Positions 1 through 38,973 of a DNA stretch of 64,000 bases are shown here, one piece after another. The stretch spans positions 8,290 to 72,289 of the forward strand of contig JBGSUE010000040.1 in NCBI GenBank assembly GCA_041753515.1, read 5' to 3'. Source of the DNA: Patescibacteria group bacterium (GTDB taxonomy: Bacteria; Patescibacteriota; Microgenomatia; UBA10105; UBA927). Position 1 is the stretch's first letter. Every line of letters starts with the position of its first letter. The position numbers and the translations under genes were made by a program. Under the pieces are notes generated by a model. The model was given only the letters and a program-made list of their open reading frames with translations. It had not been told where the DNA came from and ran no database searches.

Positions 1-1667
1 AGAATATTTTCTTCCCTTTTTCCTTTTTCCTTTTTCCTTTCACCTAATGACGGGTATCTTAAAAAGTACCACGAACTATCTAAAAATGTATCAGAAACGT
101 CCGTCTCACGCCTGGCATCCCCACCGCAATGAGGACATTTTACTTCATAAAATTCCGTATGTTTTGCCAAAGGAGCAATACTGTCATCGCCAGGACGGTA
201 GTCTTCTATACGGGGCAGCAGTACCGGCAATTGACCATTGGGCACTGGAAACCAACCGGCCATATCAGAAAATGCAGATTCTTCTGAATATGTGATTCCT
301 TTTGTAAAACAATATTTACAAAATATCATCGGAATCGGTGGACCCCAATATCTTTGGCGCGAAATAAGCCAATCACGCAGGTGATAGGTAGAAACCCGTT
401 TCCCCCATCCCATCTTTTCCATATGGTCCATCATTGCGGCAGTTGCTTTATGAATATCCATACCATTCAGAAATCCTGAATTCATCATAATTCCTTCATC
501 TTCCTGAACATCGTCAATGTGTGTAATACACCCGTCATTATTGGCTGTTTTAACAACACGTATGACCGGAATATCAAATTCCCGGGCAAATTCAAAGTCC
601 CGTTTGTCATGACCGGGCACTCCTACAACCGCTCCGGAACCAAATCCCATAAGAACAAAGTCGGAAATGTACACAGGCATCAGTTTTCCATTTAGATCGT
701 TTTGACAATATAAACCAGTAAAGACTCCGGTCTTCTTTCTCCCTTCTTGTGCTCTTTCCTCAGATGTAATCTGTGATACACTTTTTATATATTGCTTGAT
801 TTTTTTACTCTGATCCTGATTTATCACTGTCAGAATCTGACTGATAATTTCATGCTCAGGAGATAGAGCAACAAAGGTGGCCCCAAAGTTTGTATCTGGT
901 CTTGTAGTAAAACATATAAGGTCAAATACATATTTATGATCTCTATTGACTACCTTATATGTAATATTGATTCCTTCCTTTTTCCCGATCCAGTTTGTTT
1001 GTGCGGTTTTCACAATGTGTGACCAATGAAGTGCGGGAATGTTTTCCAGTAATTTTTCCGCATATGCGGTAATTCGAAAAAACCATTGTTCTAAAGATCT
1101 TTTTGTTACATTATTTCCGCATCTCTCGCATTTTCCATCTATAACCTGCTCATCAGCCAAAACCGTTTTACATCCCGGACAAAAATTAACCTCCGCCCGT
1201 TTCCGGTATGCCAGGCCGTGTTTAAACATCTCCACAAACAACCATTGAGTGAAACGGTAGTAATCCGGATCATACGTTTCCAGGGTTTTGTCCCAATCAT
1301 ACATTGCTCCTATCTTGTGAAGCTGTGCATAAAATTTTTTCTGCGTAACCAGAGCATGGTCCATTGGATGGCGTCCTATTTTCAATGCGAAATTTTCGCT
1401 GTGAATGCCAAAACCGTCCAGTCCAATAGGCTCAAACACATTGAAGCCGCACATTCGCTTGTAGCGGCCGAAAATGTCCGCACCGGTAAATGCATACATG
1501 TTTCCCACATGCAGGCCTTCAGCGGATGGATACGGAAACATCATAAGATTGAAAAATTTCTTTTTCGTATCTTTGACATCCGTACTATTCTGTCGAATTG
1601 TGTTCCAACGGGACTTCCATTTGGTTTCGATATCTGTATGATTAAACATAGGTGTAGTATATACCAT
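1..1667 (-). CDS. leuS: leucyl-tRNA synthetase, N-terminal ~555 aa (gene runs off the window start; no in-window stop, hence absent from the ORF track)
   Basis: Minus-strand frame open from ATG at 1665-1667 (MVYTTPMFNHTDIETKWKSRW...) to position 1. It contains PYPSAEGLHVGN (HIGH-like), LeuRS-specific HLRDWLISRQRYWGPPIP, zinc-knuckle CPGCKT...CERCG and TFLDSSWYFLRYP. Confidence 0.9.
   Translation of the reverse strand, partial: MVYTTPMFNHTDIETKWKSRWNTIRQNSTDVKDTKKKFFNLMMFPYPSAEGLHVGNMYAFTGADIFGRYKRMCGFNVFEPIGLDGFGIHSENFALKIGRHPMDHALVTQKKFYAQLHKIGAMYDWDKTLETYDPDYYRFTQWLFVEMFKHGLAYRKRAEVNFCPGCKTVLADEQVIDGKCERCGNNVTKRSLEQWFFRITAYAEKLLENIPALHWSHIVKTAQTNWIGKKEGINITYKVVNRDHKYVFDLICFTTRPDTNFGATFVALSPEHEIISQILTVINQDQSKKIKQYIKSVSQITSEERAQEGRKKTGVFTGLYCQNDLNGKLMPVYISDFVLMGFGSGAVVGVPGHDKRDFEFAREFDIPVIRVVKTANNDGCITHIDDVQEDEGIMMNSGFLNGMDIHKATAAMMDHMEKMGWGKRVSTYHLRDWLISRQRYWGPPIPMIFCKYCFTKGITYSEESAFSDMAGWFPVPNGQLPVLLPRIEDYRPGDDSIAPLAKHTEFYEVKCPHCGGDARRETDVSDTFLDSSWYFLRYPSLGERKKEKGKREENI
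17..44. repeat. heptanucleotide tandem repeat (TTTTTCC)x3 plus TTTCACC inside the leuS CDS; encodes a K/E-rich insert ERKKEKGKREE on the minus strand
   Basis: Direct reading of 17-44: tttttcc tttttcc tttttcc tttcacc. Total length is in-frame. Confidence 0.7.
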
Positions 1668-3774
1668 TGTTATAAGGCATGACAAGAATATACATTTCTT
1701 GCCACTTTCGCCCTCTTTATCCCGAATAATAGAAATTATATACAGTTTTCACACGCATATACACGTATAATTTCACAGGATACGTATGTTCGTAAGTCAA
1801 TCAGTCACTCAAAGGTGAAAATATATATATGTCTTATATCAATAGCCTAAATCAATCTAGCACTCATTGGTTATAAGTGCCATTTAACATAATTCGGAGC
1901 TAAATTATCTTGCGGGAATAATTAAATTGAATAGAAATATATTCGTGAATATTTACACCTCGATATGATAAAATAATTATTATAAGTTTTATAATAAACA
2001 TATTATCGGTTATAAGCTAGTTATAGATCGTTATAACGGTATTATTATTTCCCGGATGGATAATTTATTGATCAAGTAGTACTGAGTAATATACTGCATA
2101 TATTATTAAATATTTATTTAAATATGATGTCCTATGGTATAGAAATCTGCGGCTAAATATGTACATGCGTTAAATCGTGAATAGTAATTTTTACACTCAG
2201 GCATATTCCTCATCCTATTCATACAGATATTGATTCATCAAATAGATATGCATCGCTTCAAATTTATTTGCATAGATATACTTTATCAAAGCTTATTCCG
2301 GCATCCTAAAATATTTTCTTACCATTAGTATTTCAGTATTATGATCATGTAGACAAAAAAATCTGCCATTTCCTCGTTTTCAATTTATTCCAACGTACCT
2401 GCTCATACCTTCCACTATTTTATTTTTGTACAATAGGCTCTTGAATATGTATTCACCAGAAGTCGAAGAAACTAGCGAAATGTTTTTGCACTAAATGGAA
2501 TACGGGAATACCGTAAGTATCAATGAACCAGTTCATGATGGTTACTTACCAGATTCACACTTTATGTTAAAAAATAATTACATCATTGATTAATGACAAA
2601 CTACAAATGCTCACTGCTCTCATGTCTGAATGTACCCGACTTTTAAACACGTACAATAAAAACATCACTTTTTTCTTTTGTCGTAAAATATTCAACTCTC
2701 CTCCACTTTACATTTTTAATAGTTATTGATACGTCGTAAAAATTTTTATGAAATTTACATTATACATATAAAAATTTAAAAATTCTCACTATTGCATAAT
2801 AAACCTATAATATATTCTTCTTTTTATAATTATCTTTCCGTCACTAGTCGTACAAAATATTTTGGTATACTCTGCTCTAAAGATACAAATCTAATCTCAT
2901 ATACGTCGTAAAATTTTATATCAAATAAACATACCGGTAATACATATTTATTAAATCGTCGTAAAATATATACATTATCTGTCGAACGGCCTCACGAACA
3001 GGATTACAAATTTTCAGGAGAAATATTTATTAATTAGCCAAACTCAACCGAATATAATAAAACGGGATACAGACATCCACCAATTATTTCATTATATTGA
3101 TTCTATATACACATCTCTATTATTACTTCAGCATTTTACACTTCAATATCAATATAGTACTAAATGATATTTAAAACATCTATATATTATTTAATATTCT
3201 TTTTTATATATTAATACGACTTAAATGGATTGTTCTTGCGTGAGCCCCATAACCGAATCTGCATATCTTTAAATCTTTCATTAGAATACAGAGAAATTCC
3301 GCATACCTTTCCATTTTCAGTCGGACTCCGGGTGTTTGAAAAACCTTTCACTGTCATATTCAACGCAATCCCCATTCTTTATCCGACGTGCGCGATTCAC
3401 GGCTACTATTGTGCTCTGTTCAGTTCACTATCTATGCCGGTTGAGGAATTTTTCATCCGTTATATGGCATTTCAAAGGCTTACGGAAATGAGAGTTTTTT
3501 TATTAACTTTAGACTGTCATGTCAGTATGAAATATGAAATACTTTGAGGCTAAATTAGCAATCTCACTCTCTCATCTGCTAAATATCAATAATATCATTA
3601 GAACAGGAAAATCGTGGTTTTTGAAGCTAAAATATACTATATACTCCTCACTTTCCCCGAGTCATATTCATTTTTCAAACAATAACTATCTTATAGGACT
3701 CACCAAACTGATGTCAATTTTTCACTTTTTCCGGATTTCTATATCTAAAGATATCAATGAAGGACTTAACTACA
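1668..3774. other. 2.1-kb AT-rich region with no credible ORFs, between the leuS start and the 3' end of the pilin cluster
   Basis: Base composition far more AT-rich than flanking CDS. Stops in all six frames. The only track ORFs (3230-3547, 3534-3887) are low-complexity. Confidence 0.6.
2678..2970 (+). repeat. five same-orientation direct repeats of core [T]ACGTCGTAAAAT (iteron-like), spaced about 52-116 bp
   Basis: Copies at about 2678-2690 (ttgtcgtaaaata), 2730-2742 (tacgtcgtaaaaa), 2846-2860 (tagtcgtacaaaata), 2902-2917 (tacgtcgtaaaatttt) and 2955-2970 (atcgtcgtaaaatata). Confidence 0.6.
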
Positions 3775-4290
3775 TCAGTCAGCACAGAGGCAGAAATTGC
3801 GGTTCGCAACCGTACATTCCGCAGCGCAATTTGCACTGCATTTGGATACACTCGATGATATGTCCGGATCACCTGGATTCTCCATGACGGTCGCTAAACA
3901 AAAATCATCACCGGATATCTTTTGAGTATACGTCCAGCCATCATCAACTCCCGGATCCATGTCCGGCCATTGTTTCATATATTGCGTATCACACCCGCCT
4001 CCGCCGGCTGCAAAATCGTAGTCCGTACACACAGAACCATCACACACTTGGTCCCCAGCCGCCCCGCACCCCTGAATACTTAATCCTGCTGTATTTGCTG
4101 GATATATTCCATAATCATTGTAATACAGCCGCAAGGCGGTTTTCATCTCCCCAAGTTCGGTCTTGCGCTTTACATCCCGCGCCCTCTGCCGTATTCCCAT
4201 AAAATTGGGAACAATTAGACCGATAATCGTGGCAATCACACCGATGACCACAAGTATCTCTATAAGCGTGAATGCTCTATGCTGTTTCAT
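3775..4290 (-). CDS. type IV pilin-like protein (prepilin N-terminal methylation domain; Cys-rich C-terminus)
   Basis: MKQHRAFTLIEILVVIGVIATIIG... has the class III signal peptide G/FTLIE. RK-x-ELGEM motif is shared with its neighbours. Confidence 0.8.
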   Translation of the reverse strand: MKQHRAFTLIEILVVIGVIATIIGLIVPNFMGIRQRARDVKRKTELGEMKTALRLYYNDYGIYPANTAGLSIQGCGAAGDQVCDGSVCTDYDFAAGGGGCDTQYMKQWPDMDPGVDDGWTYTQKISGDDFCLATVMENPGDPDISSSVSKCSANCAAECTVANRNFCLCAD

Positions 4291-4294
4291 ATAT

Positions 4295-4834
4295 TTAGTT
4301 TAACACTTTATTTGTACTCGTGACACCGAAATTACATTCTATCAACGTAGTCTTACCACACTTCAATAAACCGATCGGATCATTGTAATCGTCAGGATTT
4401 CCTGAACCATCATGAAGAGCATCCTGATCATCTAAATTTTCCAACCGTGCATATAGTTTAAAAAAAGTACCTGAAGCATCGCTCAGATAATAGTAAGTCT
4501 GCGTTGATTTCGGGTCTGACGGCAATTCCGCCATATATATGACCTCATTCGGACTCACCCCTTGCTTCATCATATCACCCCAATTGCATGTCACCTGTCC
4601 TGTATCTCCACAGGCATTCATTCTTCCATTTGTTGTCATTTTTGGAAAAGATCCAAAATCCTGATAATAAATCTCTATGGCTTTTGCCATTTGGGCAAGG
4701 TCGCTTTTGCGTTTGAGATCATTTCGCTTCATCATCGTTGCCCGGTAGCTGCCGATAGCACCCACGGCTAAAATAGCTAAAATTGCCATCACGACGATTA
4801 TTTCAATAAGCGTGAAGCCACGATTTTTATTCAT
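4295..4834 (-). CDS. type IV pilin-like protein
   Basis: MNKNRGFTLIEIIVVMAILAILAVG..., KRKSDLAQMAKAIEIYY. Confidence 0.8.
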   Translation of the reverse strand: MNKNRGFTLIEIIVVMAILAILAVGAIGSYRATMMKRNDLKRKSDLAQMAKAIEIYYQDFGSFPKMTTNGRMNACGDTGQVTCNWGDMMKQGVSPNEVIYMAELPSDPKSTQTYYYLSDASGTFFKLYARLENLDDQDALHDGSGNPDDYNDPIGLLKCGKTTLIECNFGVTSTNKVLN

Positions 4835-4844
4835 ATCATCTCTA

Positions 4845-5294
4845 TTATGGCACTAATGGTACACCACTCGTCAATCCGTAATTCACACCCGGCTCCAATC
4901 CACAGGCTGTTGCCGTACATCCCGCTTTTACTATATCAGGATCTGATGTCTGTTTAAGTGTTGCAAATATCCTATACCCGTCACACGATCCAATCTTTCG
5001 GTACAGATACTGTTGTTTGGTCTCCGGATCGCAGACAAATCTGTTCATGCCCTGATTTTCAAATGCAGTTGAACCGCAGATGGAAGGATCGTTGAGCGTG
5101 GCTTCATCGGGATAGCACCCGGTGTCATTGAAATACTGCTCCAGCATCACTTTCATCTTGGCAAGATCCTGCTTCCGGCGCCCGTCAAATCCTTTTTGAA
5201 GCTGTGCCATCCAGTTTGTGTATCCGGCTGCCAGTAGTAGCGCCATGATGGCTATCACAATCAGAAGTTCCATGAGGGTAAAGCCTCTTCTCAT
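4845..5294 (-). CDS. type IV pilin-like protein (start trimmed to MRRGFTLMELLIVIAI; the track ORF extends to 5372)
   Basis: The prepilin leader is normally 5-7 aa ending in G before FTLxE. RRKQDLAKMKVMLEQYF is paralogous to the two upstream pilins. Confidence 0.75.
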   Translation of the reverse strand: MRRGFTLMELLIVIAIMALLLAAGYTNWMAQLQKGFDGRRKQDLAKMKVMLEQYFNDTGCYPDEATLNDPSICGSTAFENQGMNRFVCDPETKQQYLYRKIGSCDGYRIFATLKQTSDPDIVKAGCTATACGLEPGVNYGLTSGVPLVP

Positions 5295-5313
5295 ATTTTC
5301 AGTATAATACAAC
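5295..5313. promoter_or_regulatory. 19-bp divergent intergenic region with overlapping -10 elements for two leaderless-type starts (TATAAT 5303-5308 on plus; TATACT from 5301-5306 on minus)
   Basis: Sequence is CAT(5292-94) attttcagTATAATacaac ATG(5314). Each -10 lies 5-6 nt from its start codon. Confidence 0.4.
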
Positions 5314-7383
5314 ATGATCCAGTTGTATATCTTTACAGAGAAAGCCCACGTAGGTATGATGGGGTCTATCATGACATCACGGATTGCTTTGGCAATACTC
5401 CTGTCTACAGTTGCAGTTTTTTATACCGGGTTCGGTGAGATATTCCAAACGCCGAAATTTTTTCTTCTGACTGGATCGACCCTCATACTCCTGTGTATTT
5501 TGGCCGTCAGGATAGTATTCGTCAACCGTATACCCATCCCGCGAATCGGCCTATGGACCGGATTTCTTGCTCTTGCCGTATCCTCGCTGATCACAACGGT
5601 ATTTTCCGGTTCAAACATCAGCGACCAGCTCAACGATCCTGTTGCCAGCCCATGGGTATTTTTCAGTCTTGCCCTTCTCTCGCATTTCTTACAGACTGCT
5701 TCTACCCGGGGAGCCACAACACTGCGATATACATATATCATCCTCGTCTCTATCCTTTCGATACTTTCCATCTATATGTACTTTGGTCTGGGAGAGATCA
5801 TGTTTCCGGCATCAGATATCCTGAAAGACAAACTATTTACTCCTGTTGGCAATCCGTATGTGCTTTTTGCACTGCTCGTCATGGCTATACCGGCGATTCT
5901 TTTTTCCATACAAAACGCGTACAGGCATACCCGGGATATTGATGTAGGACTCTATACCATAGCCGGGCTCTTGGTTCTCACCGGTACCGCTTTTTTAGGT
6001 ATCCAGCTTGCCCAAACAGCTTCAACATCACTCCTGCCCCTTTCTTCCGCCTGGTCAATACTCATGGAATCATATAAGACGTTTAAAAATGCGCTCGTCG
6101 GTGTGGGTTTGGACAACTATATCAGCGCATTCAATGCCGGCCGTCCGGCACAGCTCAACACAACACCCATCTGGAATCTCCGGTTCACTTCAGGCCCAAG
6201 CTTATTTTTCCATATTGGGGCAACTCAAGGATTGGTGGGGATCTTTGCATTTTCCGTATTTCTTATAAACATCGTGAAGTCAGTGAAAAATAACCCGGCA
6301 TGGTATAGGTTCAGTACGATTTTTCTTGCCGTGCTGTCCCTCTTTATCATCCAGCCTCATCTTGCCCTGTGGACGGGTCTCATATTCATCCTTCTTCCAC
6401 TCACGAAAAATTCCAACTCAAACCACGATGCATATCTCATCATTCATCAGCGCTGGGTTGCATGGGTTACTGCATCCGCGACTATTCTTGGCTGTGCCAT
6501 CCTTTTCATCTTCTGGTGGCGTTCTCTTATGGGAGAAATTGTATTCGGCCAGTCTTTGTCTGCCGCCTCCAATAATGACGGTAAAAAAACGTATGAAAAG
6601 CAAATTCAGGCAATCGGGTATAAACCGGACAAAACAGCATTCCATATCGCCTATTCCCAAACCAATATATCACTAGCAAATTCCATTGCTTCACAGGCCG
6701 AAAACAACCTGAATACGCTCACTGAAGAAGACAAAACTCTTTTCTCTCAACTTATCCAGCAGGCCGTCAGGGAAGCGAAAACTGCCACAACTCTCTCGCC
6801 AAGAAACGTCCTGGCATGGGAAAATCAGGCTAAAACGTATCAGGCGATTGCAGGTGTCGTCACCGGCTCCGACCAATGGGCAATCGCATCGTATCAGGAA
6901 GCCATCAAGCTGGATCCGACGAATCCGCTTCTTCGCATGGACCTTTCAGGTCTCTTTATGCGTTTGGGTAAATTTGACGAAGCGATCCAGGAGCTCAAAA
7001 CTGCCTCGTATCTCAAAAACGATCTTGCCAATATCCACTACAACCTCGCCTATGCTTACGGACAAACAAAGGCGTATTATAACCAGGCTGTAGAGCTCAA
7101 ACGGACAGCAGCGCTTATCGATCCCTCAAGCGAGGATGCAAAAAAAGTAGAAGATACACTGAAAGAGGTTGTAATCGAATTAAATGAACAGGAAAAAACC
7201 TCTTTTTCTGAAATTGTGACCGGTATTCCGGCAATAGACCAGATCCCGCTCTCAACTCCAAAACCCGAACCGGTTTTCGAGATCGAACCGAAGCTGGATA
7301 TTCTCCCCGAAGAGGCAACAACATCTTCCTTACCGCACCCTTCCCCAGAGAGCACCGGCGGAGATGAAACAGTAGAGAACTAA
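5314..7383 (+). CDS. O-antigen ligase (Wzy_C/WaaL/PglL-PilO) family polytopic membrane protein with C-terminal TPR repeats; candidate pilin O-oligosaccharyltransferase
   Basis: About 12 TM segments. Wzy_C-like block GVGLDNYISAF...SLFFHIGATQGLVGIFAFSVFL. C-terminal TPR-like AYYNQAVELKRTAALIDP. Divergent from the pilin genes. The start could instead be MMGS at 5356. Confidence 0.65.
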   Translation: MIQLYIFTEKAHVGMMGSIMTSRIALAILLSTVAVFYTGFGEIFQTPKFFLLTGSTLILLCILAVRIVFVNRIPIPRIGLWTGFLALAVSSLITTVFSGSNISDQLNDPVASPWVFFSLALLSHFLQTASTRGATTLRYTYIILVSILSILSIYMYFGLGEIMFPASDILKDKLFTPVGNPYVLFALLVMAIPAILFSIQNAYRHTRDIDVGLYTIAGLLVLTGTAFLGIQLAQTASTSLLPLSSAWSILMESYKTFKNALVGVGLDNYISAFNAGRPAQLNTTPIWNLRFTSGPSLFFHIGATQGLVGIFAFSVFLINIVKSVKNNPAWYRFSTIFLAVLSLFIIQPHLALWTGLIFILLPLTKNSNSNHDAYLIIHQRWVAWVTASATILGCAILFIFWWRSLMGEIVFGQSLSAASNNDGKKTYEKQIQAIGYKPDKTAFHIAYSQTNISLANSIASQAENNLNTLTEEDKTLFSQLIQQAVREAKTATTLSPRNVLAWENQAKTYQAIAGVVTGSDQWAIASYQEAIKLDPTNPLLRMDLSGLFMRLGKFDEAIQELKTASYLKNDLANIHYNLAYAYGQTKAYYNQAVELKRTAALIDPSSEDAKKVEDTLKEVVIELNEQEKTSFSEIVTGIPAIDQIPLSTPKPEPVFEIEPKLDILPEEATTSSLPHPSPESTGGDETVEN

Positions 7384-9498: not shown

Positions 9499-9590
9499 AA
9501 TTATGAATTAATAATTACGAATGACGAATTTAATAAGGTAAATATTGCACATATCAATTCATAATTCATAATTCGTAATTCATAATTTCT
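9499..9590. repeat. inverted pair of (AATTCRT)n heptamer arrays flanking a 22-bp spacer, between the acetyltransferase stop and the aminotransferase start
   Basis: Left arm 9499-9533 is in reverse orientation. Right arm 9556-9590 reads aattcat aattcat aattcgt aattcat aatttct and overlaps the last codons (KKL) and the stop of the upstream gene. Confidence 0.7.
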
Positions 9591-11037: not shown

Positions 11038-11096
11038 ATAATAGCTTTCTATGGTACTCTAAAAACCTATAATATGCAATTTCTTTATCATTGCCT

Positions 11097-11178
11097 GTCA
11101 TTCTGAGCCCCCGAGCACTAGAGGCGAAGAATCTCATCATGTCCAATAAATAGATTCTTCACTTCGTTCAGAATGACT
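11097..11178. repeat. inverted-repeat element E1 (type A: TGTCATTCTGAGC...GAAGAATCT / AGATTCTTCACTTCGTTCAGAATGAC)
   Basis: Near-perfect palindrome about 60 bp upstream of the GT2 start at 11037. Confidence 0.7.
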
Positions 11179-14242: not shown

Positions 14243-14925
14243 TGAGTGCTTCTGATCGTTTAAAACTGCTGGACGATATGGCCGGTGCTATGCAGGATAT
14301 TCACGATAACGGATTCGGATTTGAAGATTTCGGCATGCACCGTTTTGTCATTGAAATACCAAAAAAAGAGCAGGGAACGGTACAGACACATCTTATCGAT
14401 TATTCCGGCGCTATCCATCATCCATCCGAAGAAATCCTTGCAGATTCCCAATCATACCTCCGCCACACAGCATTCCATATCCTGACTCGTTCGGCAAACC
14501 ACATTCCTCCGGAAACATTTCGGGAAGTGGCTTTGATATTCGATGAACAGATTCCGTACAGGGATGCACTGGCACGCATACGCAAAGCAATCCAAACTGA
14601 CCGTACTCATACATACTGGGAAAAAGACGATCCCGATCCCATACCGATATCCTTTCTAGACAAGGCATATAATCTGCAGGATTTACACAGAAATGGATTT
14701 ATCTATCCACACTACCTTCGCAAAGAGACTTTTGCAGGAGGTCCATACGCATATGACGATACACTCCCGTCGCCCAGCTTGGAATCAATTAAAGAAACGA
14801 ATCTTGAGGATTTAGGATATTTTACGATATCAGAAATCAAAAACAGCCCTGTTATTAACCCTAAACTCGCAGACTGGGCAGTACAGCACGTCTACGGTGA
14901 ATCACACACCTACTGGCCTGTTTAA
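14239..14925 (+). CDS. kinase-like protein, C-lobe only (Kdo/WaaP-like catalytic segment MHDNGFGFEDFGMHRFVI...LIDYSGA); possibly a degenerate paralog
   Basis: ATGA start/stop overlap with the upstream gene. Lacks the N-lobe. Confidence 0.4.
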   Translation: MMSASDRLKLLDDMAGAMQDIHDNGFGFEDFGMHRFVIEIPKKEQGTVQTHLIDYSGAIHHPSEEILADSQSYLRHTAFHILTRSANHIPPETFREVALIFDEQIPYRDALARIRKAIQTDRTHTYWEKDDPDPIPISFLDKAYNLQDLHRNGFIYPHYLRKETFAGGPYAYDDTLPSPSLESIKETNLEDLGYFTISEIKNSPVINPKLADWAVQHVYGESHTYWPV

Positions 14926-14940
14926 CACTCTTTCATCTAC

Positions 14941-14965
14941 TCCCAATACATCGATGTATAGGGAG
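14941..14965. promoter_or_regulatory. second copy of the 24-bp palindrome (tcccaatacatcgatgtataggga), downstream of the kinase-like pair
   Basis: Direct reading. With 13255-13279 it brackets the two-gene unit. Confidence 0.5.
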
Positions 14966-15001
14966 TTAATTATCCACTAATCTATAATCTGTACAGAATA
15001 C

Positions 15002-15030
15002 TTGACAAAATAATGTACGTTTTGTATACT
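15002..15030 (+). promoter_or_regulatory. sigma70-type promoter TTGACA-N17-TATACT, 8 nt upstream of the phd start (leaderless-type)
   Basis: TTGACA 15002-15007, spacer 17 nt, TATACT 15025-15030, ATG at 15039. The spacer holds gtacgttttgtatac, a possible operator. Confidence 0.6.
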
Positions 15031-15038
15031 CTATTCAT

Positions 15039-15311
15039 ATGCAGCTCCAACCATCCCAATTCATTCCGATAACCGAAGCAAGAACGAGAATTTCTGAACT
15101 TACAAAATCCGTTGAAGGAGACACGTATGTTGTACTGACAAAAGGTGGGAAACCCAAAGCTGCACTGGTTGATATTGCCTATTTACAACGTTTGCAGAAT
15201 GATCTCTCCAAACTCTATAAAAAAACTTATATCGACCCAGTACTTCTTCCGATTACCCGTCAATTTTCCGATAGTGAAATACAAGAGTGGGAAAAAGAGG
15301 ATCAGCTATAA
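15039..15311 (+). CDS. type II antitoxin, Phd/YefM family
   Basis: MQLQPSQFIPITEARTRISELTKSVEGDTYVVLTKGGKPKAALVDIAYLQRL is the Phd_YefM fold signature. Confidence 0.8.
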   Translation: MQLQPSQFIPITEARTRISELTKSVEGDTYVVLTKGGKPKAALVDIAYLQRLQNDLSKLYKKTYIDPVLLPITRQFSDSEIQEWEKEDQL

Positions 15312-15317
15312 AAATGT

Positions 15318-15785
15318 ATGAAACAGGCGTTTCTCGATTCAAGCGTCCTGTTTACAGCCGTCAACTCCCCAACCGGCGGATCAGCCAAACTGTTTACTCT
15401 CCCAATTCAGCTTGTCACATCAACGTTTGTGTTGACAGAAGTCGAACGAAATGTCCGGGAAAAACTGCTCTCTCATCATCTGGACCGGTATTTCATACTT
15501 GTTAAACAAATGAAGATCGTGGAGGGTAAATCGGATACTAAACTGATTGAAAAAGCCAAAAAAGTCATTGTCGAAAAAGACTCACTTGTTCTTGCAGATG
15601 CCAAACTGTCACATGCTGAGTATCTGATCACTCTGGATCTCAAGTACTTCTTCACTCCACAAGCCCAAAAATTTCTCAAACCCACCCTCATCCTCACCCC
15701 AAAATGCTCATTGAAAAAATTTCCTGACTGTTTTAACGACCGTTTCGGTTTCGGAGTCAGTCAGTTCAGGAAACAGCGGCAGTGA
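15318..15785 (+). CDS. vapC: PIN-domain toxin (VapC-like)
   Basis: Acidic residues at FLDSSVL, TEVE, ADAK and ITLD. Follows the antitoxin by 6 bp. Confidence 0.7.
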   Translation: MKQAFLDSSVLFTAVNSPTGGSAKLFTLPIQLVTSTFVLTEVERNVREKLLSHHLDRYFILVKQMKIVEGKSDTKLIEKAKKVIVEKDSLVLADAKLSHAEYLITLDLKYFFTPQAQKFLKPTLILTPKCSLKKFPDCFNDRFGFGVSQFRKQRQ

Positions 15786-16814
15786 TAAAACTTCCCTGCT
15801 CTGTGCTTCAGACTCGGGGAAGTCGCCTTTTTTGTAGCCTAAATATGCAAATGCTTTCGTCAGGTGGACCGGGACGGGATAATGGACGGCACAGCCAACA
15901 CCATGATCCAAAAGATGTTTCATGAGCTTATCTCGTTTCTTTGTGCGTACAACATAAAGATGATGACTGGATTTGGAGGAAGGTGAAAGGTGAAAGGTAA
16001 AAGGTGAAAGGTCTCCGATATTTGATAATTCCCGGTCATAAAACGAAGCAATTTCCTTCCGTCGTCTATTCCATGCATCCAGATGCCGGAGCTTGATGGA
16101 AAGAATTGCCGCCTGCAGTTCATCCAACCGTGAGACGCCTGATACAACTTCACTTTGGTATCGTGCTTTCTCCCCGTACTGCCGCAGCATTTTTACGCGG
16201 CCGGCTAATGAGGATGAATCCGTCACGATCATTCCCCCGTCCCCCATGGCTCCCAGATTTTTTGACGGATAAAAACTGAAAATTGCCGCGTCTCCCAGTG
16301 TCCCAACTTTTTTCCCCTCAATCACTGCTCCATGCGCCTGTGCGGCATCCTCTAGTAGATATATCTTTCTTTTCGCATTATTGAGTATATTTTGTAGACC
16401 GATAATATCTGCCGGATTGCCATACAGGTGTACCGGAATCACGGCTTTTGTCTTTTCCGTCACACGCTTCGCCAGATCATCGGCAGACATGTTTCCGTCC
16501 GGTCCGCAATCTGCCAACCGTATTGCAGCACCGGAAAGAGCTACCCCAAACGCATTGGGGTATGCATTGGCAGGGATGACAACCTCATCACCAGGCATAA
16601 GTCCGAACGCTTTCAGTACCAACGTGAGGGCATCCGTCCCGCTGGCCACCCCTATTGCATGATAGCTGCCCAGATAATCGGCAAACTCATCTTCAAACAT
16701 TTTCACTCGTGGCCCCAATGTAAAGTACCCATTCTCCATGACCGTATGGACTGCGGATTTCAACTCTGTTTCGATACTTTTATACTGTCTGGTTAATTCA
16801 AATATTGGAATCAT
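15708..16814 (-). CDS. DegT/DnrJ/EryC1/StrS-family sugar aminotransferase (second copy)
   Basis: 368 aa. LLEDAAQAHG...FSFYPSKNLGAMGDGG. Contains a repeat-encoded insert SPFTFHLSPSS. Confidence 0.85.
   Translation of the reverse strand: MIPIFELTRQYKSIETELKSAVHTVMENGYFTLGPRVKMFEDEFADYLGSYHAIGVASGTDALTLVLKAFGLMPGDEVVIPANAYPNAFGVALSGAAIRLADCGPDGNMSADDLAKRVTEKTKAVIPVHLYGNPADIIGLQNILNNAKRKIYLLEDAAQAHGAVIEGKKVGTLGDAAIFSFYPSKNLGAMGDGGMIVTDSSSLAGRVKMLRQYGEKARYQSEVVSGVSRLDELQAAILSIKLRHLDAWNRRRKEIASFYDRELSNIGDLSPFTFHLSPSSKSSHHLYVVRTKKRDKLMKHLLDHGVGCAVHYPVPVHLTKAFAYLGYKKGDFPESEAQSREVLSLPLFPELTDSETETVVKTVRKFFQ
15974..16008. repeat. heptanucleotide tandem array (GGTGAAA)n: ggaggaa ggtgaaa ggtgaaa ggtaaaa ggtgaaa, inside the aminotransferase CDS
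   Basis: Direct reading. Minus strand reads TTTCACC units, the same unit that ends the leuS array. Confidence 0.7.
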
Positions 16815-16821
16815 AATGGTC

Positions 16822-16883
16822 TGTCATTCTGAACAAAGTGAAGAATCTATTCACTAGATCCTTCGCTCACGCTCAGGATGACA
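16822..16883. repeat. inverted-repeat element E2 (TGTCATTCTGAACAAAGTGAAGAATCT ... AGATCCTTCGCTCACGCTCAGGATGACA)
   Basis: 8 bp upstream of the aminotransferase start at 16814. Overlaps the 3' end of the GT2 pseudogene. Confidence 0.7.
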
Positions 16884-17586
16884 AACGGTACAGTATCATA
16901 TCAATAATCGTCGGAATGATGGTTCTAAGGCTTCCTCCCCCCGCCCCTTCCTCATCGGTCCGGGCTTTGTGGGCAATCGTTGTTTCCGCCACACGAAAAC
17001 CGGCACGGACCGCATCGATAATCATCTCCGCATCCACAAATGCGGAACGGGTTGAAAGATCAATCGAATCAATGACTTGTTTTTTTACGAGCCGGATGGA
17101 ATTGACGTCATGAATACTGATCCCGTAGAAGAATTTAAGAAGTGTATTGTAAATTTTCGACTGCCGCAAACGCGTTTCCGGATCCCTGCGGTTCACCCGC
17201 CAGCCGATAATCAAATCTGCATCACCTACAAGTTGTGCCAATGTTTGCAGTTCTTTGGGGTCCAGCTGTCCGTCACCGGGAACGGTAAACAGCCACTCAT
17301 ACCGTCAGGTTTTATAGAGTTCCTGTATGGTTCCCCCATACCCCTGATTCACCGTATGGGTTAAAACAGTAAGTTGTGGGTATTTCTTTAAAAGATTATT
17401 CAATACATCGCCCGTTCCGTCACGGCTTGCATCATTTATCACCATGATTTCGTATGTCCTGGTAATTTTTTTGGCAATAGTATCTGCTTTTAAAATTACT
17501 GATGCAACAGTCTCTTCATCATTGTATGCAGGTATGAGGATTGATACGGACGGAAAACGCATAGGATATTTTCCATATGATATCAT
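16873..17586 (-). pseudogene. DPM1-like GT2 with a single in-frame TGA at 17305-17307 (two track ORFs, 17305-17586 and 16873-17241, share one frame)
   Basis: Continuous translation is ...NQGYGGTIQELYKT[TGA]RYEWLFTVPGDGQLDPKELQTLAQLVGDADLIIGWR... The DxD-region alignment is uninterrupted, so one codon is replaced by a stop. Confidence 0.55.
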
Positions 17587-17619
17587 GCTGATGATATATG
17601 TGCATGTAACAAGAAATTA

Positions 17620-17704
17620 TGTCATTCTGATCCGCCAGTTGGCGGAGAAGAATCTAGTTTAAAAAATTAGATCCTTCACTCGCCTTCGGCGGTTCAGGAT
17701 GACA
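17620..17704. repeat. inverted-repeat element E3, 2 bp upstream of the ATG at 17707 and 34 bp upstream of the divergent start at 17586
   Basis: tgtcattctgatccgccagttggcggagaagaatct ... agatccttcactcgccttcggcggttcaggatgaca. Both inner arms are palindromic. Confidence 0.7.
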
Positions 17705-17706
17705 CA

Positions 17707-19263
17707 ATGAATGTAATTATGAGATTAACGAAAAATTTTATTCTTTTCTTTTTTATCGCCCAGATATACATATTCCTCTCCAATTATCATCTTCTGATTC
17801 TTGCGTCCCATACGCCGCAAGGCGCCAGATTTACGTGGAACCATATTGCCTACTGGTCCATGGACCACAATGTCTACCTGTCTGTCATCAATCAGGGAGC
17901 GCGCGGTGAGTGGCTCATGCGGGATGCGTACACCGCAGAGCCCACACATCCGACGTTTTTCTATTTCTTCTATATACTTCTCGGGAAAATAAGCGGTGCC
18001 CTCAACATCCTGCCTGATACCGCGTATCTGTGGGCTAAACTTATCGGCGTTGAATTTTTTGTCCTGTCTCTGTACTTTCTCAGTAAAAAAATACTGGGAA
18101 AGAATGGCATATGGGCTTCACTTCTTGCACTGTCCATAAGCGCCCTGCCGGTCCTCAACTGGGATACCCGCTACTACCATGAATTCTGGCCCTGGTGGGC
18201 CCGCTTTGATGCAATCCTGCGTCTGGACAACATGCCCCACTACCTCTGGAGCTGGGGACTATTATGCCTCTTTGCCGCCACCTGGTTTTCATATATGAAA
18301 GGAAAAAAAACTTATCTTCTTGTGCTATCTTCTATCTTCTCCCTTCTATCCTCTATGTTCCTCCCCTCGTCCGCCATCCCCATCATCGCGGGTCTGGGCG
18401 TCCTGTGGCTGCTATCCAAAAAACACCGCACCGGCACAGCTTTTTTTGTAGCAGCAATCGTCGCCATTCCGCTCCTATTAACCTACCGGGAAAAATTCAA
18501 CGGTTTTCCATGGACTGAGTGGTACCTATTTGAACTTGACACATGGAACCGCCAGGCAACCCATTTCAATATCGAATTTTTGCTTTCAGCCGGATTATTA
18601 CCAATCCTGGCATTGGTCGGCATACGGAAAAATAATCCTTCCTCCATTTTTCTGGCAGTGTGGGCTTTCCTACCCTTTTTTCTTCTCCCTTTCTCCTCAC
18701 TCCTGGGGCTCTCCAAATACCGCCTGGCATCAACCGGCGTCTTTATCCCATTCGCGCTTTTAAGCATTCAGGCTATTCAATATTTCAAAAAAACCGGTGT
18801 TTTGCTGATATGCATCTCTATTGCTTTTTCAATCATCACATCACTTTACATTTTCACCAATCTCAACCGCACCGCCCAAGAATACCCTGTTTACGCAAAC
18901 GTGTATATTCCAAAAGAAATGATGGATATTTTTTCATATCTCAATACGAATGCAGACGCCACCGATGTGATTGTGAGTGACTGGGTCAGCGGTAACCTAT
19001 TCCCTGTTTTTACACCCGTTACGGCATTCACAGGCCACCCTGTCCACACAAGAAACTTTTTCGATAAAACCGCATGGTATGGATCATTGTACCGGGGAGA
19101 ACTGACACAAAAAGACGCGGAAACAAAGCTTGGGGAATACCGGATTACATATATTCTTCACGGACCTGCGGAAAAGAGAATCGGTGTATCGCTGTCAGCA
19201 TATACGTTCCTGAAAAAAGTGTATGTGATGGGAGACTATAAATTATACAAAGTAGAATTATGA
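17707..19263 (+). CDS. polytopic membrane protein of an uncharacterised GT-C-like paralog family (member 1 of 7)
   Basis: N-terminal signature FTWNHIAYWSMDHNVYLSVINQGARGEWLMRDAYTAEP. C-terminal signature AYTFLKKVYVMGDYKLYKVEL. More than 10 TM segments. Confidence 0.55.
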   Translation: MNVIMRLTKNFILFFFIAQIYIFLSNYHLLILASHTPQGARFTWNHIAYWSMDHNVYLSVINQGARGEWLMRDAYTAEPTHPTFFYFFYILLGKISGALNILPDTAYLWAKLIGVEFFVLSLYFLSKKILGKNGIWASLLALSISALPVLNWDTRYYHEFWPWWARFDAILRLDNMPHYLWSWGLLCLFAATWFSYMKGKKTYLLVLSSIFSLLSSMFLPSSAIPIIAGLGVLWLLSKKHRTGTAFFVAAIVAIPLLLTYREKFNGFPWTEWYLFELDTWNRQATHFNIEFLLSAGLLPILALVGIRKNNPSSIFLAVWAFLPFFLLPFSSLLGLSKYRLASTGVFIPFALLSIQAIQYFKKTGVLLICISIAFSIITSLYIFTNLNRTAQEYPVYANVYIPKEMMDIFSYLNTNADATDVIVSDWVSGNLFPVFTPVTAFTGHPVHTRNFFDKTAWYGSLYRGELTQKDAETKLGEYRITYILHGPAEKRIGVSLSAYTFLKKVYVMGDYKLYKVEL

Positions 19264-19976
19264 AAACGACCGTCATTTTACCGGCACACAATGAAGAAGA
19301 GGTCATCGGCAAGATGGTTACTATGATCAATTCGCTTTTCGATACATGGGTATCCCAGTTAATTGTCGTTGACGATTGTTCAAGCGACAAAACAGCGCTC
19401 ATAGTGAAAAAACTGCAAAAAAAGGACAATCGCATAGTGCTCATCCAAAGAAATCCTCCAGGAGGTGTCGGGCTTGCACTGCGGGAAGGACTCAAACATG
19501 TAGCAAAATCGTCTGACTGGATACTGACGCTTGATGCGGATTTTACCCGCAATATTCCTGATCTTTATGAATTTTTTGCCAGTACGAAAGGTGTCGATGG
19601 ATTGATAGGATCACGATATATGATGCCAAACTCTCTTGTGAGATACCCGTTTTTCAAAAAAGTTTTCAACAGGCTGTTCCACCTTGCGGTCCGCATTATT
19701 TTCGGCGTCACAAATCATGACCTGACGAACAATTTCAAACTGTATAAAAAATCTATGTACCTGAAGCTCCCGCTGTCTGAAAACAGCTATGCCATAAATG
19801 CCGAAACCGGACTGTATCCCATTCTCATGGGATATAAAATAAAGGAACTTCCCGTCACCTGGTACGCGAGAACTCATGATGAAGGGATTTCAAAATTCAA
19901 GCTTCTGTCATTCGGTCCCGCGTACGGACGGGTCATCCTCAATGCATTCAGGCTTTTTCGACAACGACGAGGATAA
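19260..19976 (+). CDS. GT2 polyprenyl-phosphate sugar synthase (DPM1-like)
   Basis: VILPAHNEEE...VVDDCSSDKT...LDADF...GSRY. ATGA overlap with the upstream GT-C gene. Confidence 0.8.
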   Translation: MKTTVILPAHNEEEVIGKMVTMINSLFDTWVSQLIVVDDCSSDKTALIVKKLQKKDNRIVLIQRNPPGGVGLALREGLKHVAKSSDWILTLDADFTRNIPDLYEFFASTKGVDGLIGSRYMMPNSLVRYPFFKKVFNRLFHLAVRIIFGVTNHDLTNNFKLYKKSMYLKLPLSENSYAINAETGLYPILMGYKIKELPVTWYARTHDEGISKFKLLSFGPAYGRVILNAFRLFRQRRG

Positions 19977-20649
19977 AGGGGCAGAAAATATCCCGTATCC
20001 CGGGTATTTTTTCAACAACACTGTGTAGCTTCGTAACAAACGGATATCTGTTAATGATTTCCGGAGGAAAAAAACCGAATTTCTTCACGATCTTCACGCG
20101 CATACCTGCATCTGTACACCCGGCCAAAAATCGCCCTATATAACTCGTATATGTCCCTTTTTCAATTTCCCACGTCATATCGCGCCTCAGAAGTATGGCT
20201 AAGAGGTGCCAGGGACTGATGGGATTATTTTCCACAAATATCATCCTGCCTCCTTTTTTCAAATGTTTGGATACATTTCGTGCAACCGACTCGACAAAGT
20301 CCGGAACATGATGAAGTATAAAAAAACCGACCACACTATCAAACATGCTCTTTTTTTGCATCTGAATTCGTGTGAGGTCAAGTACTGATGCCTGTATATT
20401 ATTACCTTGAATCTTTTTTTTTAGTGAATCAATTTCATTCTCCGATATATCAGTCGCGAGCACTGTTTGGACATGATGGGATAGCTCAAACGTAAACCTT
20501 CCCTGCCCTGCCCCGACTTCCAGAATAGCATCTTGTTTTGATATCCACTGCTGAATAATACCAACAATAAATCGCGCATAGGGTTTATTACTTTCAGCTT
20601 TCAGATATTCTGGATCTACCGAGTTGTAAAAATTTTTCTGAGTACTCAT
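19948..20649 (-). CDS. class I SAM-dependent methyltransferase
   Basis: Motif I ILEVGAGQGRFT. Confidence 0.7.
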   Translation of the reverse strand: MSTQKNFYNSVDPEYLKAESNKPYARFIVGIIQQWISKQDAILEVGAGQGRFTFELSHHVQTVLATDISENEIDSLKKKIQGNNIQASVLDLTRIQMQKKSMFDSVVGFFILHHVPDFVESVARNVSKHLKKGGRMIFVENNPISPWHLLAILLRRDMTWEIEKGTYTSYIGRFLAGCTDAGMRVKIVKKFGFFPPEIINRYPFVTKLHSVVEKIPGIRDIFCPFILVVVEKA

Positions 20650-21804: not shown

Positions 21805-21839
21805 AATTCATAATTCGTAATTCATAATTTGTAATTGAA
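21805..21839. repeat. (AATTCRT)n heptamer array: aattcat aattcgt aattcat aatttgt aattgaa
   Basis: Lies between the epimerase stop and the SGNH start at 21773. Confidence 0.7.
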
Positions 21840-24745: not shown

Positions 24746-26254
24746 ATGATGCTTCTTGTGATTCTTCTTATACTCAGCGCAACCGTTGCAAACATGAGTG
24801 CGTTTATTGCCCAAATCGCAGCCCAACCGTCCAATACTGTGTATCTTGGGACCATCCATTACTGGGAAGACTACTTTTTTCTTCTCAATCATTTTTTTCA
24901 GGGAGCTCACGGACAGTGGTTGGCGGTAAACCAGCTCACCCACGATATTCCCGGCACCACAATCATTTATTGGTCCAATGTTCTCATGGGAAAAATCGGC
25001 GGACTCTTCGGATTGTCTCCCCAATTCACATACTCCCTCAGTGTTCTTATATTGACGTTTCTTTCCCTTGGCGCACTCTTTATTCTGATTCAAAAACTCG
25101 TACCGGAGAAAAAAAAAGCGCTTCTGGCATTTTTCTTTGCCGTCACAGCCACATCATTACCCAACCGTGTCGTATCCGGAGAAACCGGACAGATGATCAC
25201 CTGGCCGTTTCAGATCTGGGGCACGACCCATCTGGCTCTGGACCGCTTAGGCGGTGCCCCCCATCATTTATTTCGAAATGTGCTTGCTTATATATTTTTA
25301 TATTTTCTATTTTCAAAAAAATCCACCATGTCCATTATCGTTGCCTTTTTTCTTGCTTCTGTTAATCCCACACAAGCCCTTCTATCACTTGGCATATTCA
25401 GCATCGTGAATTGGCAAGACATAAAACGGCTATTACCAACATGGGTTTCCGTAGTGTTTATGACTCTGTGGGTCAACCATGATTTACACTCGGAAGCATA
25501 TCGGGTTGCCGCGGCATGGGACGGATCCCAGAATAGTTACACGACTCTGCCGTTTCTGATGGCGTCAATTGGTCCAATTGGACTCATTAGTCTCATTGGT
25601 CTAATGAAAAAAAATTTTTCCCGTATCGAATTGTTCGGACTCCTGACAATTCTTTCAACATATTTCTATTTCATGACTCCCATCCCGAAACTTCTCCATG
25701 TTTCAAATCTACGGCTTCTTTTTCCCTCAACGCACGTATTTTTCGGCATCTTCGCCGCCAGTGGGGCGTTATATCTTTCAAAAAAAATTCCTCTCGTCCT
25801 CATCCTGATTCTCTACTCTCTTCTCACTATTCCTACTCTCGATTGGGAAATCGGCATGAAAACGTCAAATATCAAACCGAACGACCAGCTCCTCTATCTC
25901 CCTTCCTTGGTGCATGAAGGATTCGTGTATCTGTCTACACAAACTCCCTTTACGGACGTAACCCTCGGCAATCCGGGAAGCCACATGGACATCCTCATTC
26001 CGGCCCTCTCCGGCCACACAACCTATGTTGCCCATTTCTTGGAAACGAAAGATTACCCCCGAAAAAAGGCAGAAACGGAAAAATTCTATTCACTGCAGTT
26101 GACACCGGATAAAGCACAAAAATGGCTGACCGAAAATACCATCAGATATATTTTGTTTACGAAGTATGATGGAGATAAAACGAAGTTTGAAGAAAATTAC
26201 AGCTTCCTGAAACCCGCATTTTCCAATCCGGAAAGTACGGTCTATCAATTCTAA
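24746..26254 (+). CDS. GT-C-like paralog family member 2
   Basis: PSNTVYLGTIHYWEDYFFLLNHFFQGAHGQWLAVNQLTHD. C-terminus NYSFLKPAFSNPESTVYQF. Confidence 0.55.
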   Translation: MMLLVILLILSATVANMSAFIAQIAAQPSNTVYLGTIHYWEDYFFLLNHFFQGAHGQWLAVNQLTHDIPGTTIIYWSNVLMGKIGGLFGLSPQFTYSLSVLILTFLSLGALFILIQKLVPEKKKALLAFFFAVTATSLPNRVVSGETGQMITWPFQIWGTTHLALDRLGGAPHHLFRNVLAYIFLYFLFSKKSTMSIIVAFFLASVNPTQALLSLGIFSIVNWQDIKRLLPTWVSVVFMTLWVNHDLHSEAYRVAAAWDGSQNSYTTLPFLMASIGPIGLISLIGLMKKNFSRIELFGLLTILSTYFYFMTPIPKLLHVSNLRLLFPSTHVFFGIFAASGALYLSKKIPLVLILILYSLLTIPTLDWEIGMKTSNIKPNDQLLYLPSLVHEGFVYLSTQTPFTDVTLGNPGSHMDILIPALSGHTTYVAHFLETKDYPRKKAETEKFYSLQLTPDKAQKWLTENTIRYILFTKYDGDKTKFEENYSFLKPAFSNPESTVYQF

Positions 26255-26505
26255 TTATAATGCACGGTAATTGACAAAATTTCTATCGCATCTTTGTCAG
26301 GACGGAAAACAAATAAGGCTCGGTATTTCCTATCGATCCTAAACGAATAGACTCCGAATTCTTTCGGTTCAAGTTTTTCAACATGAAGACCCGGATGGTT
26401 AATATTGGTGGTAATGAGAACTGCTTTTGCGTCAAATTTTTTCCTGATACCGTGACGAAGGAGGTCGTCTTTCAGCTTCTTTTTTATCGGCAGGACTGGC
26501 GGCAT
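26251..26505 (-). CDS. RelE/ParE-family type II toxin
   Basis: GVYSFRIDRKYRALFVFRPDKDAIEILSITVHY is the RelE/ParE C-terminal signature. Lies downstream of an RHH antitoxin. Confidence 0.65.
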   Translation of the reverse strand: MPPVLPIKKKLKDDLLRHGIRKKFDAKAVLITTNINHPGLHVEKLEPKEFGVYSFRIDRKYRALFVFRPDKDAIEILSITVHYN

Positions 26506-26511
26506 ATGAGC

Positions 26512-26796
26512 TCATGTAAAATAATCACTCTGTGAGAGTGCGCTTTTCAGGTCTTTCAGAAAATCAGGGGAATATTTTCCGGTATTTTGAAAACCGGATA
26601 AAATTTTGGCTATAGAACGGGTAGAGGGCGGATCAAGAGGTAGGACACTCGCCTGGTCAACAAGTTCGGGTTTATGGCGCACCAGGCGCAAAACCGCGCG
26701 AAAAAGCTCGCTGCGGCTGGCAAAACCGTATTTGGAAACCATTGAGTCAATAAAACTGACTTGATCGGATGGAAGTGAAATATTCACGGAACTCAT
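26512..26796 (-). CDS. ribbon-helix-helix antitoxin (ParD/CopG family); start trimmed to MSSVNISLPSDQ
   Basis: NISLPSDQVSFIDSMVSKYGFASRSELFRAVLRLV matches the ParD RHH pattern. Confidence 0.65.
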   Translation of the reverse strand: MSSVNISLPSDQVSFIDSMVSKYGFASRSELFRAVLRLVRHKPELVDQASVLPLDPPSTRSIAKILSGFQNTGKYSPDFLKDLKSALSQSDYFT

Positions 26797-26802
26797 AACC
26801 AA

Positions 26803-26832
26803 ACTATACCAAACTTTGCCAATTTTTGTCAA
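26803..26832 (-). promoter_or_regulatory. promoter TTGACA-N18-TATAGT, 6 nt upstream of the parD ATG (leaderless-type); direct repeats GTTTGGT may form an operator
   Basis: Minus-strand reading: ttgacaaaaattggcaaagtttggtatagtttggttATG. Confidence 0.55.
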
Positions 26833-27009
26833 AACCAATTTCCCCAACCCCCGACCCAATCGGAGCCTCGGAAAATGGATGGACGTGATGGTATTTTCAA
26901 ATACCCAGTATTGGGTATCTCAAAACACCAAGGCATACGACAATGAAACTACAACGACAGAGCAAACAACGCTCCGGCCTGGGTGTTGACGAACTTATGT
27001 TGTGGGGGT

Positions 27010-38904: not shown

Positions 38905-38921
38905 AATATTTTGTCATGCTG

Positions 38922-38973
38922 AGTGAAACGAAGCATCTCTTCACGAGATTCTTCACTACGTTCAGAATGACTC
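38922..38973. repeat. inverted-repeat element E4 (short variant), 18 bp upstream of the start at 38904
   Basis: tgtcatgctgagtgaaacgaagcatctcttcacgagattcttcactacgttcagaatgact. Confidence 0.6.

Follow-up and report, generated by a model that had tools for sequence, protein, structure and literature searches.

Polyprenyl-Phosphate Glycosyltransferases and the Reading of UGA

The closest described relatives of the protein considered here are the polyprenyl-phosphate glycosyltransferases ArnC, GtrB and DPMS. In ArnC, GtrB and the archaeal DPMS the protein ends in C-terminal transmembrane helices; PpgS and human-type DPM1 are without C-terminal membrane helices, and human-type DPM1 is about as short as the protein described below. 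The codon UGA is itself read in more than one way. It is a terminator in the standard bacterial code, is assigned to Gly in code 25 of the Gracilibacteria and Absconditabacteria and to Trp in code 4, and directs the insertion of selenocysteine in selenoprotein genes. UGA-C is the weakest context for release factor RF2 in E. coli, and background readthrough usually amounts to only a few percent or less.

The present locus brings these two subjects together, as it presents an in-frame UGA within a glycosyltransferase gene of family GT2. The host is an uncultured, groundwater-type bacterium, and the gene is one of seven similar GT2 genes in the window (the whole 64-kb stretch of DNA that was analyzed). 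The features of the locus are as follows.

16873..17586, minus strand: the GT2 gene, interrupted by one stop and predicted from sequence, homology, an AlphaFold2 model and Foldseek to encode an ArnC/GtrB/DPMS-like polyprenyl-phosphate glycosyltransferase
17305..17307, minus strand: the in-frame TGA, identified by translation; codon 94 counted from 17586, codon 86 counted from 17562
17272..17280, minus strand: the PGD motif, residues 103-105, with G104 invariant and P103 and D105 conserved at 90% or more
15708..16814, minus strand: a DegT/DnrJ/EryC1-family sugar aminotransferase gene, immediately downstream of the GT2 gene (PF01041, E 2.7e-101)
17707..19263, plus strand: a gene for a 518-aa polytopic membrane protein, divergent from the GT2 gene, with five paralogues at 21-25% identity
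16822..16883, spacer between the GT2 and DegT genes: palindromic intergenic element E2, with termini TGTCATTCTGA...TCAGGATGACA and a predicted hairpin of -36.1 kcal/mol (z -8.2)
17620..17704: palindromic intergenic element E3, of the same family as E2, with a predicted hairpin of -47 kcal/mol (z about -9)

A Single In-Frame Stop Codon

Translation of the minus strand across window positions 16870-17610 yielded one frame, which from 17610 begins MISYGKYPMRFPSVSILIPAYNDEE..., reads ...NQGYGGTIQELYKT*RYEWLFTVPGDGQLDPKE... around its one internal stop (*), and ends ...IIDMILYRLSS at a terminal TGA (16875->16873). The internal TGA (17307->17305) appears as tca on the plus strand, and its tetranucleotide context is UGA-C; neither a frameshift nor a second stop was found elsewhere in the frame. 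A mechanical list of open reading frames (ORFs) cuts the gene into two pieces, 17305-17586 (93 aa) and 16873-17241 (122 aa, with a TTG start). The initial annotation held that these two pieces share one frame and that a single TGA has taken the place of one codon with no indel, and both the translation and an alignment of 41 sequences agree with it.

The true start of the gene is likely, judging from its sequence, to be the ATG at 17562 (MRFPSVSILIPAYN...) rather than 17586, which would give a protein of approximately 229 aa; this ATG is favored because the N-termini of homologues (MKLSSLSILIPAYN...) match there. When the two halves were joined with X at the stop, a match to PF00535 (Glycos_transf_2) was found to span the stop (residues 15-159, 68.9 bits, E 6.8e-19), the gathering cut-off being 23.3 bits. 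The joined protein also aligned end to end with homologues of 228-235 aa, with E values down to 2e-81 and a query coverage of 92-97% among its best matches. Scores of this order place the homology of the joined frame far beyond chance. The gene does not, however, have the uninterrupted frame of an intact gene, TGA being a terminator in the window.

The Homologous Codon in Related Bacteria

Among about 5.8 billion proteins searched, 141 matched the joined protein, the best of them at 62% identity; the named matches came from Candidatus Gottesmanbacteria. Among the matches listed, the homologues were almost all 217-271 aa in length, and they are uninterrupted at the site of the stop. The alignment of 41 sequences has no gap specific to the window around the stop, the only nearby gap being due to a one-residue insertion in a single homologue (P0115). 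A comparison of orthologues at this position had been proposed in the initial annotation, and its outcome was mostly Gly and otherwise Ala or Ser, with Cys in one of 45 genomic loci. In the 40 homologous proteins, the column of the stop is occupied by Gly (27), Ala (11) or Ser (2), and by Gly in the closest of them (P0001). A separate scan of one genome per GTDB species provided 45 related loci of no more than 52% identity, in which the homologous codon specifies Gly (29), Ala (14), Cys (1) or Leu (1). A stop at this codon was seen in none of the 45 loci and in none of the 40 proteins. The initial placement of the TGA within a conserved block holds for the flanks, where Y91, W98, F100, P103, G104, D105 and Q107 are invariant or nearly so, but not for the column of the stop itself, which is moderately conserved (G/A/S).

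At the level of the codon, GGA was found in four of the five best-matching genome loci. Where the window has ACC TGA CGG, GCC GGA AAA stands in P0003 (59% identity), the nearest homologue whose DNA was obtained, and GGA is also the commonest Gly codon in the genes of the window. Most likely, the TGA replaced a Gly, Ala or Ser codon, with GGA as the foremost candidate; as close relatives have GGA, one change of G>T at the first base (C>A at position 17307 of the plus strand) would suffice.

The surroundings of the gene are also shared with its relatives. The GT2 and DegT genes form a conserved operon, whose order recurs in the contigs of three homologues (P0002, P0008 and P0003) and, in both contigs that are long enough, the orthologue is preceded by a divergent gene for a membrane protein of 482-533 aa. 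A second GT2 gene, a methyltransferase gene and/or an NAD epimerase/dehydratase gene is situated near the orthologue in these two contigs, and in relatives the spacer between the GT2 and DegT genes measures 17-99 bp. With the same arrangement in the window, the interrupted gene is therefore a positional orthologue. Relative to its full-length counterparts it carries a premature stop for which one base change is enough, as a pseudogene would.

The remainder of the gene shows no such damage. On both sides of the stop, the gene retains the residue at each of the 18 invariant alignment columns. Of 58 columns with a conservation of at least 90%, it deviates at three (I->V, L->M and P->T), where most intact homologues deviate 0-4 times. 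Relaxed selection was considered and rejected, given that a test for excess deviations at conserved columns gave none. As the gene is otherwise undamaged, the stop is either very recent, not real, or tolerated.

Separately, a distant homologue (36% identity) in a metagenome-assembled genome of the Melainabacteria (locus L046, CAVYFJ010000001.1, match 4001-4681) was observed to contain three stops within its tblastn alignment; the copy may have degraded, or the assembly may be of poor quality in that stretch.

Predicted Fold and Class

An AlphaFold2 model based on the alignment was obtained with a pLDDT of 91.9 and a pTM of 0.89. In a Foldseek comparison of this model with the PDB, ranks 1-25 were all taken by ArnC, GtrB or DPMS (E 1e-17 to 7e-12, TMq 0.62-0.81), and a phmmer search of the PDB sequences placed ArnC first (E 4e-12). 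By this ranking, the nearest structural neighbors of the model are these three enzymes, and the resemblance takes in the juxtamembrane or amphipathic helices that follow the GT-A core. The label of a DPM1-like GT2 given initially was thus right at the level of the class, the closest solved structures being ArnC, GtrB and DPMS. The chain of the protein and of its homologues runs to 228-235 aa and closes with a single terminal helix (220-236), as against 300-355 aa for the PDB targets, and the C-terminal transmembrane helices of ArnC, GtrB and archaeal DPMS are absent from it. No NCBIfam equivalog cut-off was approached; the protein scored 61.7 bits with the ArnC equivalog (NF007986) against a cut-off of 529, and 41 bits with that of PpgS against 370. 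Comparison of the DXD motifs revealed P-G-D-x-Q in the protein and its homologues, only the second Asp aligning with the D-A-D of ArnC; by this alignment PGD may correspond, in these proteins, to the metal-binding DXD motif of the GT-A fold. The protein is best described, from its sequence and its model, as a short, soluble-type ArnC/DPM1-like polyprenyl-phosphate glycosyltransferase without membrane helices.

In the model, the stop at residue 94 would fall in a loop between a helix (82-92) and a strand (98-101), nine residues before P-G-D-x-Q. The idea of a split, two-subunit enzyme was rejected: translation could first restart in frame at the TTG at 17241, past the PGD motif, so that neither fragment would carry a complete active site.

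Use of UGA in the Window

A genome-wide reassignment of UGA, to Gly as in code 25 or to Trp as in code 4, draws some support from the Gly found at the homologous residue and from the membership of the host in the same superphylum as the code-25 lineages. For the window, however, such a change is ruled out by terminator usage. TGA is the commonest terminator, closing 24 of the 52 curated gene models, among them the GT2 gene itself (22 end in TAA and six in TAG), and 19 of the 47 stop-to-stop frames of at least 200 codons end in TGA. Extension of genes past their terminal TGA produced short tails, with a median of 9.5 codons, and TGA ends match the C-termini of homologues, as is the case with the terminal TGA of the GT2 gene. 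Three adjacent gene pairs have ATGA start/stop overlaps (14239, 19260 and 22821), the GT2 codon is the one in-frame UGA in roughly 17,000 codons of the window, and the related Gottesmanbacteria loci read cleanly under code 11. UGA is a normal terminator in the window and the host uses the standard bacterial code; the probability that we would still assign to a genome-wide change is vanishingly small. The initial annotation had arrived at the same judgment with regard to UGA as Gly, while recognizing that in-frame TGA codons in many other genes would indicate an alternative code; within the window, no other gene is interrupted.

The search for other interruptions was made in two ways. Pfam scans of about 50 window ORFs identified no gene split by a frameshift or a stop besides the GT2 gene. 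When open stretches of at least 80 codons that share a frame and are joined by one stop were sought, one other pair not due to overlapping genes emerged, at 26512. As a second interrupted gene this candidate (26251-26859, minus strand) was rejected; it comprises two small separate genes, and the downstream ATG follows the TGA by 6 nt. The pair, ORFs of 115 aa and 84 aa in the same frame with TGA plus 6 nt between them, has the look of a toxin-antitoxin type.

Selenocysteine and Readthrough

An in-frame UGA within an otherwise intact gene is also what would be expected of a selenoprotein gene, and one distant homologue (L041) has Cys (TGC) at the column of the stop. Against the insertion of selenocysteine at this UGA, the residue is Gly or Ala, not Cys, in 43 of the 45 loci and Cys in none of the 40 proteins, and the site appears in the model as a structural loop rather than a redox centre; we know of no GT2 selenoprotein. 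A SECIS-like hairpin was not detected after the UGA, the 76 nt from 3 nt upstream of it folding at -17 kcal/mol with a z of +0.74 relative to shuffled sequences, and the fold of its 201-nt context was unremarkable (z -1.2). With Rfam, two irrelevant weak matches were the only ones at E<=1 over 15000-20000, and the whole window gave no match at gathering thresholds. ARAGORN detected no tRNA in the window, and so no tRNA-Sec there; none of the ORFs of the window matched SelA, SelB or SelD, and no release factor with a GGQ motif is encoded in it. The selA and selB genes and SECIS-like structures had been named in the initial annotation as signs to be sought, and none was encountered within the 64-kb window. 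On RNA structure, homologue residues and the absence of the machinery from the window, selenocysteine was ruled out, and its probability is regarded as negligible.

A leaky stop, tolerated because a near-cognate tRNA (e.g., tRNA-Trp) or a suppressor tRNA reads through the UGA and the GT2 protein stays functional, is improbable, if less so than either of the foregoing readings. It accords with the UGA-C context, with the position of the stop at a loop residue that varies in relatives (G/A/S/C/L), and with the undamaged state of the gene downstream of the UGA, although this last would be equally expected of a young mutation. No homologue shares the UGA, which therefore is not a conserved, programmed feature; moreover, neither folding value given above indicates a stimulatory RNA structure downstream, and the window has no tRNA. 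A few percent of readthrough at UGA-C could leave residual GT2 activity. We consider it very improbable that UGA is decoded usefully as Gly or Trp, whether ambiguously or in a site-specific manner, by a Microgenomates host that otherwise uses it as a stop and whose lineage is related to the code-25 Patescibacteria, a state that might represent an intermediate of stop-codon capture. Programmed readthrough and selenocysteine are both without positive support. Of the three readings that the initial annotation offered, a nonsense mutation with its pseudogene and a sequencing error have thus held up, but readthrough or recoding has not, given the lack of a SECIS, a column of Gly and Ala instead of Cys, and homologues free of the stop.

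Independent Sequence at the Locus

A base-call or consensus artefact would mean that the real codon is sense, probably GGA, and that its T (A at position 17307 of the plus strand) is an error or a promoted minority variant. This reading is taken seriously here but is considered unlikely. A single substitution would be enough to produce it, and the GT2 gene is otherwise perfect, an intactness that fits an error as well as it does a very recent mutation. On the other hand, stop-creating substitution errors are much rarer than genuine nonsense alleles in polished assemblies, and no other sign of a poor consensus was seen, with no frameshift-split genes among about 52 models.

Independent sequence was provided by two Logan contigs (L001 and L002) of a separate assembly of run SRR28170473 that were found via the products of the DegT and adjacent GT2 genes. 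These contigs cover window positions 14567-17134 and 18284-20448 (2568 and 2165 bp, 4.7 kb), missing the site of the stop, and are 100% identical to the window there, which also counts against an artefact; the consensus of the window is therefore generally clean. No Logan contig over 17135-18283 was retrieved. Positions 2-3 of L001 differ from window positions 17135-17136 (TCTA vs TAAA), inside the GT2 gene, where L001 ends. A break of this kind is what a branch in the assembly graph typically leaves. It hints that, within the GT2 gene, the strains of SRR28170473 vary or their coverage is thin, and this divergence speaks for an artefact. In Logan, nothing was on record for the exact products of the two N-terminal ORFs (93 aa and 85 aa) or for that of the 518-aa neighbor. 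The want of a product for a TGA-terminated ORF of 93 or 85 aa likewise favors an artefact, but weakly, because the contigs are about 2 kb and genes cut by contig ends escape the look-up. Exact-pattern scans with NNN at the stop codon found nothing in genome contigs or JGI metagenome contigs, and nothing relevant was found in the literature on stop codons in Gottesmanbacteria or on SRR28170473.

Palindromic Elements Flanking the Gene

The two elements that the initial annotation saw on either side of the GT2 gene were recovered as the palindromic copies E2 and E3. The GT2 gene takes its last three codons and its TGA terminator from E2, which ends 7 nt before the ATG of the DegT gene; E3 fills most of the divergent region between the GT2 gene and that of the 518-aa membrane protein. 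The window contains six full copies of the family to which they belong (11096-11178, 16822-16883, 17620-17704, 38912-38972, 49902-49977 and 51741-51821), and possible half-copies were noted near 30582 and 61065. The copies are 60-85 bp in length and have the termini TGTCATYCTGA...TCAGRATGACA with an inner GAAGAATCT/AGATCCTTC palindrome; their RNAs are predicted to form very stable hairpins, with energies of -36 to -47 kcal/mol (z about -8 to -9). Each of the six is intergenic and in the same orientation as the others, five of them between consecutive minus-strand genes and just past a stop codon. Among 48 loci obtained from other organisms, no element with the termini of this family was detected. 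A role of E2 and E3 in the interruption of the GT2 gene was considered and no connection emerged; both are intergenic members of a family spread over the window.

A second small repeat family was observed in the form of heptamer tandem repeats at three minus-strand gene junctions (9556-9587, 21805-21836 and 39767-39800), which on the minus strand read (AATTATG/AATTACG)n, e.g., AATTATGAATTACGAATTATGAATT.

A Glycosylation Island

Window positions ~7300-61000 constitute an exceptionally dense glycosylation island. It encodes seven GT2 proteins, two DegT aminotransferases, six NAD epimerase/dehydratases and several methyltransferases, and besides these a split transketolase pair, a protein of the sulfotransferase family and about a dozen large polytopic membrane proteins. 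Most of the membrane proteins are without a Pfam match, and a few have weak similarity to PMT, PMT_2 or YfhO. The divergent 518-aa protein is presumed to be a GT-C-type user of a lipid-linked sugar; matches to PMT/PMT_2 occur in other large membrane proteins of the window. The DegT aminotransferase next to the GT2 gene is ArnB-like (NF008658, E 2e-60, below the cut-off). The nearest GT2 paralogue of the interrupted gene in the window is only 28% identical to it, and redundancy among paralogues may plausibly cover its loss.

Two further observations concern the end of the window outside the island. Positions 1-3775 are a stretch of ~3.7 kb with a G+C content of 0.32-0.39, compared with about 0.44 elsewhere, in which no convincing long ORF on either strand, no Rfam match and no tRNA were found. 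Next to it (3775-5372, minus strand) are three tandem genes with the prokaryotic N-terminal methylation motif (type IV pilin-like), which adjoin the gene of a TPR protein.

Proposed Explanation and Implications

We infer that the interruption is probably a genuine and recent nonsense allele, created by a single base in an otherwise intact GT2 gene. A GGA (Gly) codon would have become TGA by one base change in a Gottesmanbacteria-like member of the Microgenomates/Patescibacteria that uses the standard code. Translation would then stop after 85-93 residues, past the nucleotide-binding half of the GT-A fold, and the product would lack the putative metal-binding motif PGD and the entire acceptor-binding half; because the stop precedes both, this product should be inactive. 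The allele would be very young, since nothing else in the gene has decayed, and may be either a pseudogene of recent origin or a variant that still segregates among the cells of the population. Its loss would probably be tolerated, as the window is a large and highly paralogous glycosylation island. Ribosomes halted at codon 94 would miss the E2 hairpin, and translation of the DegT gene could drop as a polar effect.

For annotation, the GT2 gene should be entered as a pseudogene or a suspect base call, and neither as two small ORFs nor as evidence of an alternative code. If the nonsense allele is real, one of many paralogous lipid-linked-sugar synthases would be in the course of being lost from a glycosylation island of the Candidate Phyla Radiation (CPR), a loss that would fit the rapid turnover of surface-glycan genes. 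The locus would bear on the origin of UGA reassignment in the Patescibacteria only if the stop were confirmed in reads and a full-length protein were detected.

Comparison With Known Systems

Among solved structures, that of ArnC (undecaprenyl-phosphate 4-deoxy-4-formamido-L-arabinose transferase) of the Arn pathway is the best match of the GT2 protein both by sequence (E 4e-12) and by fold (TMq 0.77-0.81), and the partners of the GT2 gene, a DegT aminotransferase, an NAD epimerase/dehydratase and a large polytopic membrane protein, are also reminiscent of the Arn set. The differences are that identity to ArnC is 21-24%, that the GT2 protein, of 229 aa against about 320, has neither of the two C-terminal membrane helices, that the DAD of ArnC is replaced by PGD, and that the gene in the window is interrupted; an Arn-type formyltransferase or deformylase was not seen near it. 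GtrB (TMq 0.76-0.78) and DPMS (0.74-0.76) have the same fold in the model comparison, and the same reaction class would be expected, while PpgS (226 aa, by the length of its model) is similarly short. The GT2 protein reaches no equivalog cut-off that would unite it with GtrB, DPMS or PpgS.

With code 25 of the Gracilibacteria and Absconditabacteria, the locus has in common a UGA where homologues have Gly and a host among the Patescibacteria/CPR. It differs in that UGA is the main terminator of the window and occurs in frame only once. The likeness to ordinary single-nonsense pseudogenes extends further, to a premature stop relative to full-length orthologues, one change that accounts for it, an accessory family of many paralogues, and a site that is not conserved as a stop in relatives; the one difference is that no further decay is visible yet in the GT2 gene. 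Most simply, then, the interruption is an ordinary feature of a known kind, either a nonsense allele or a base-call error.
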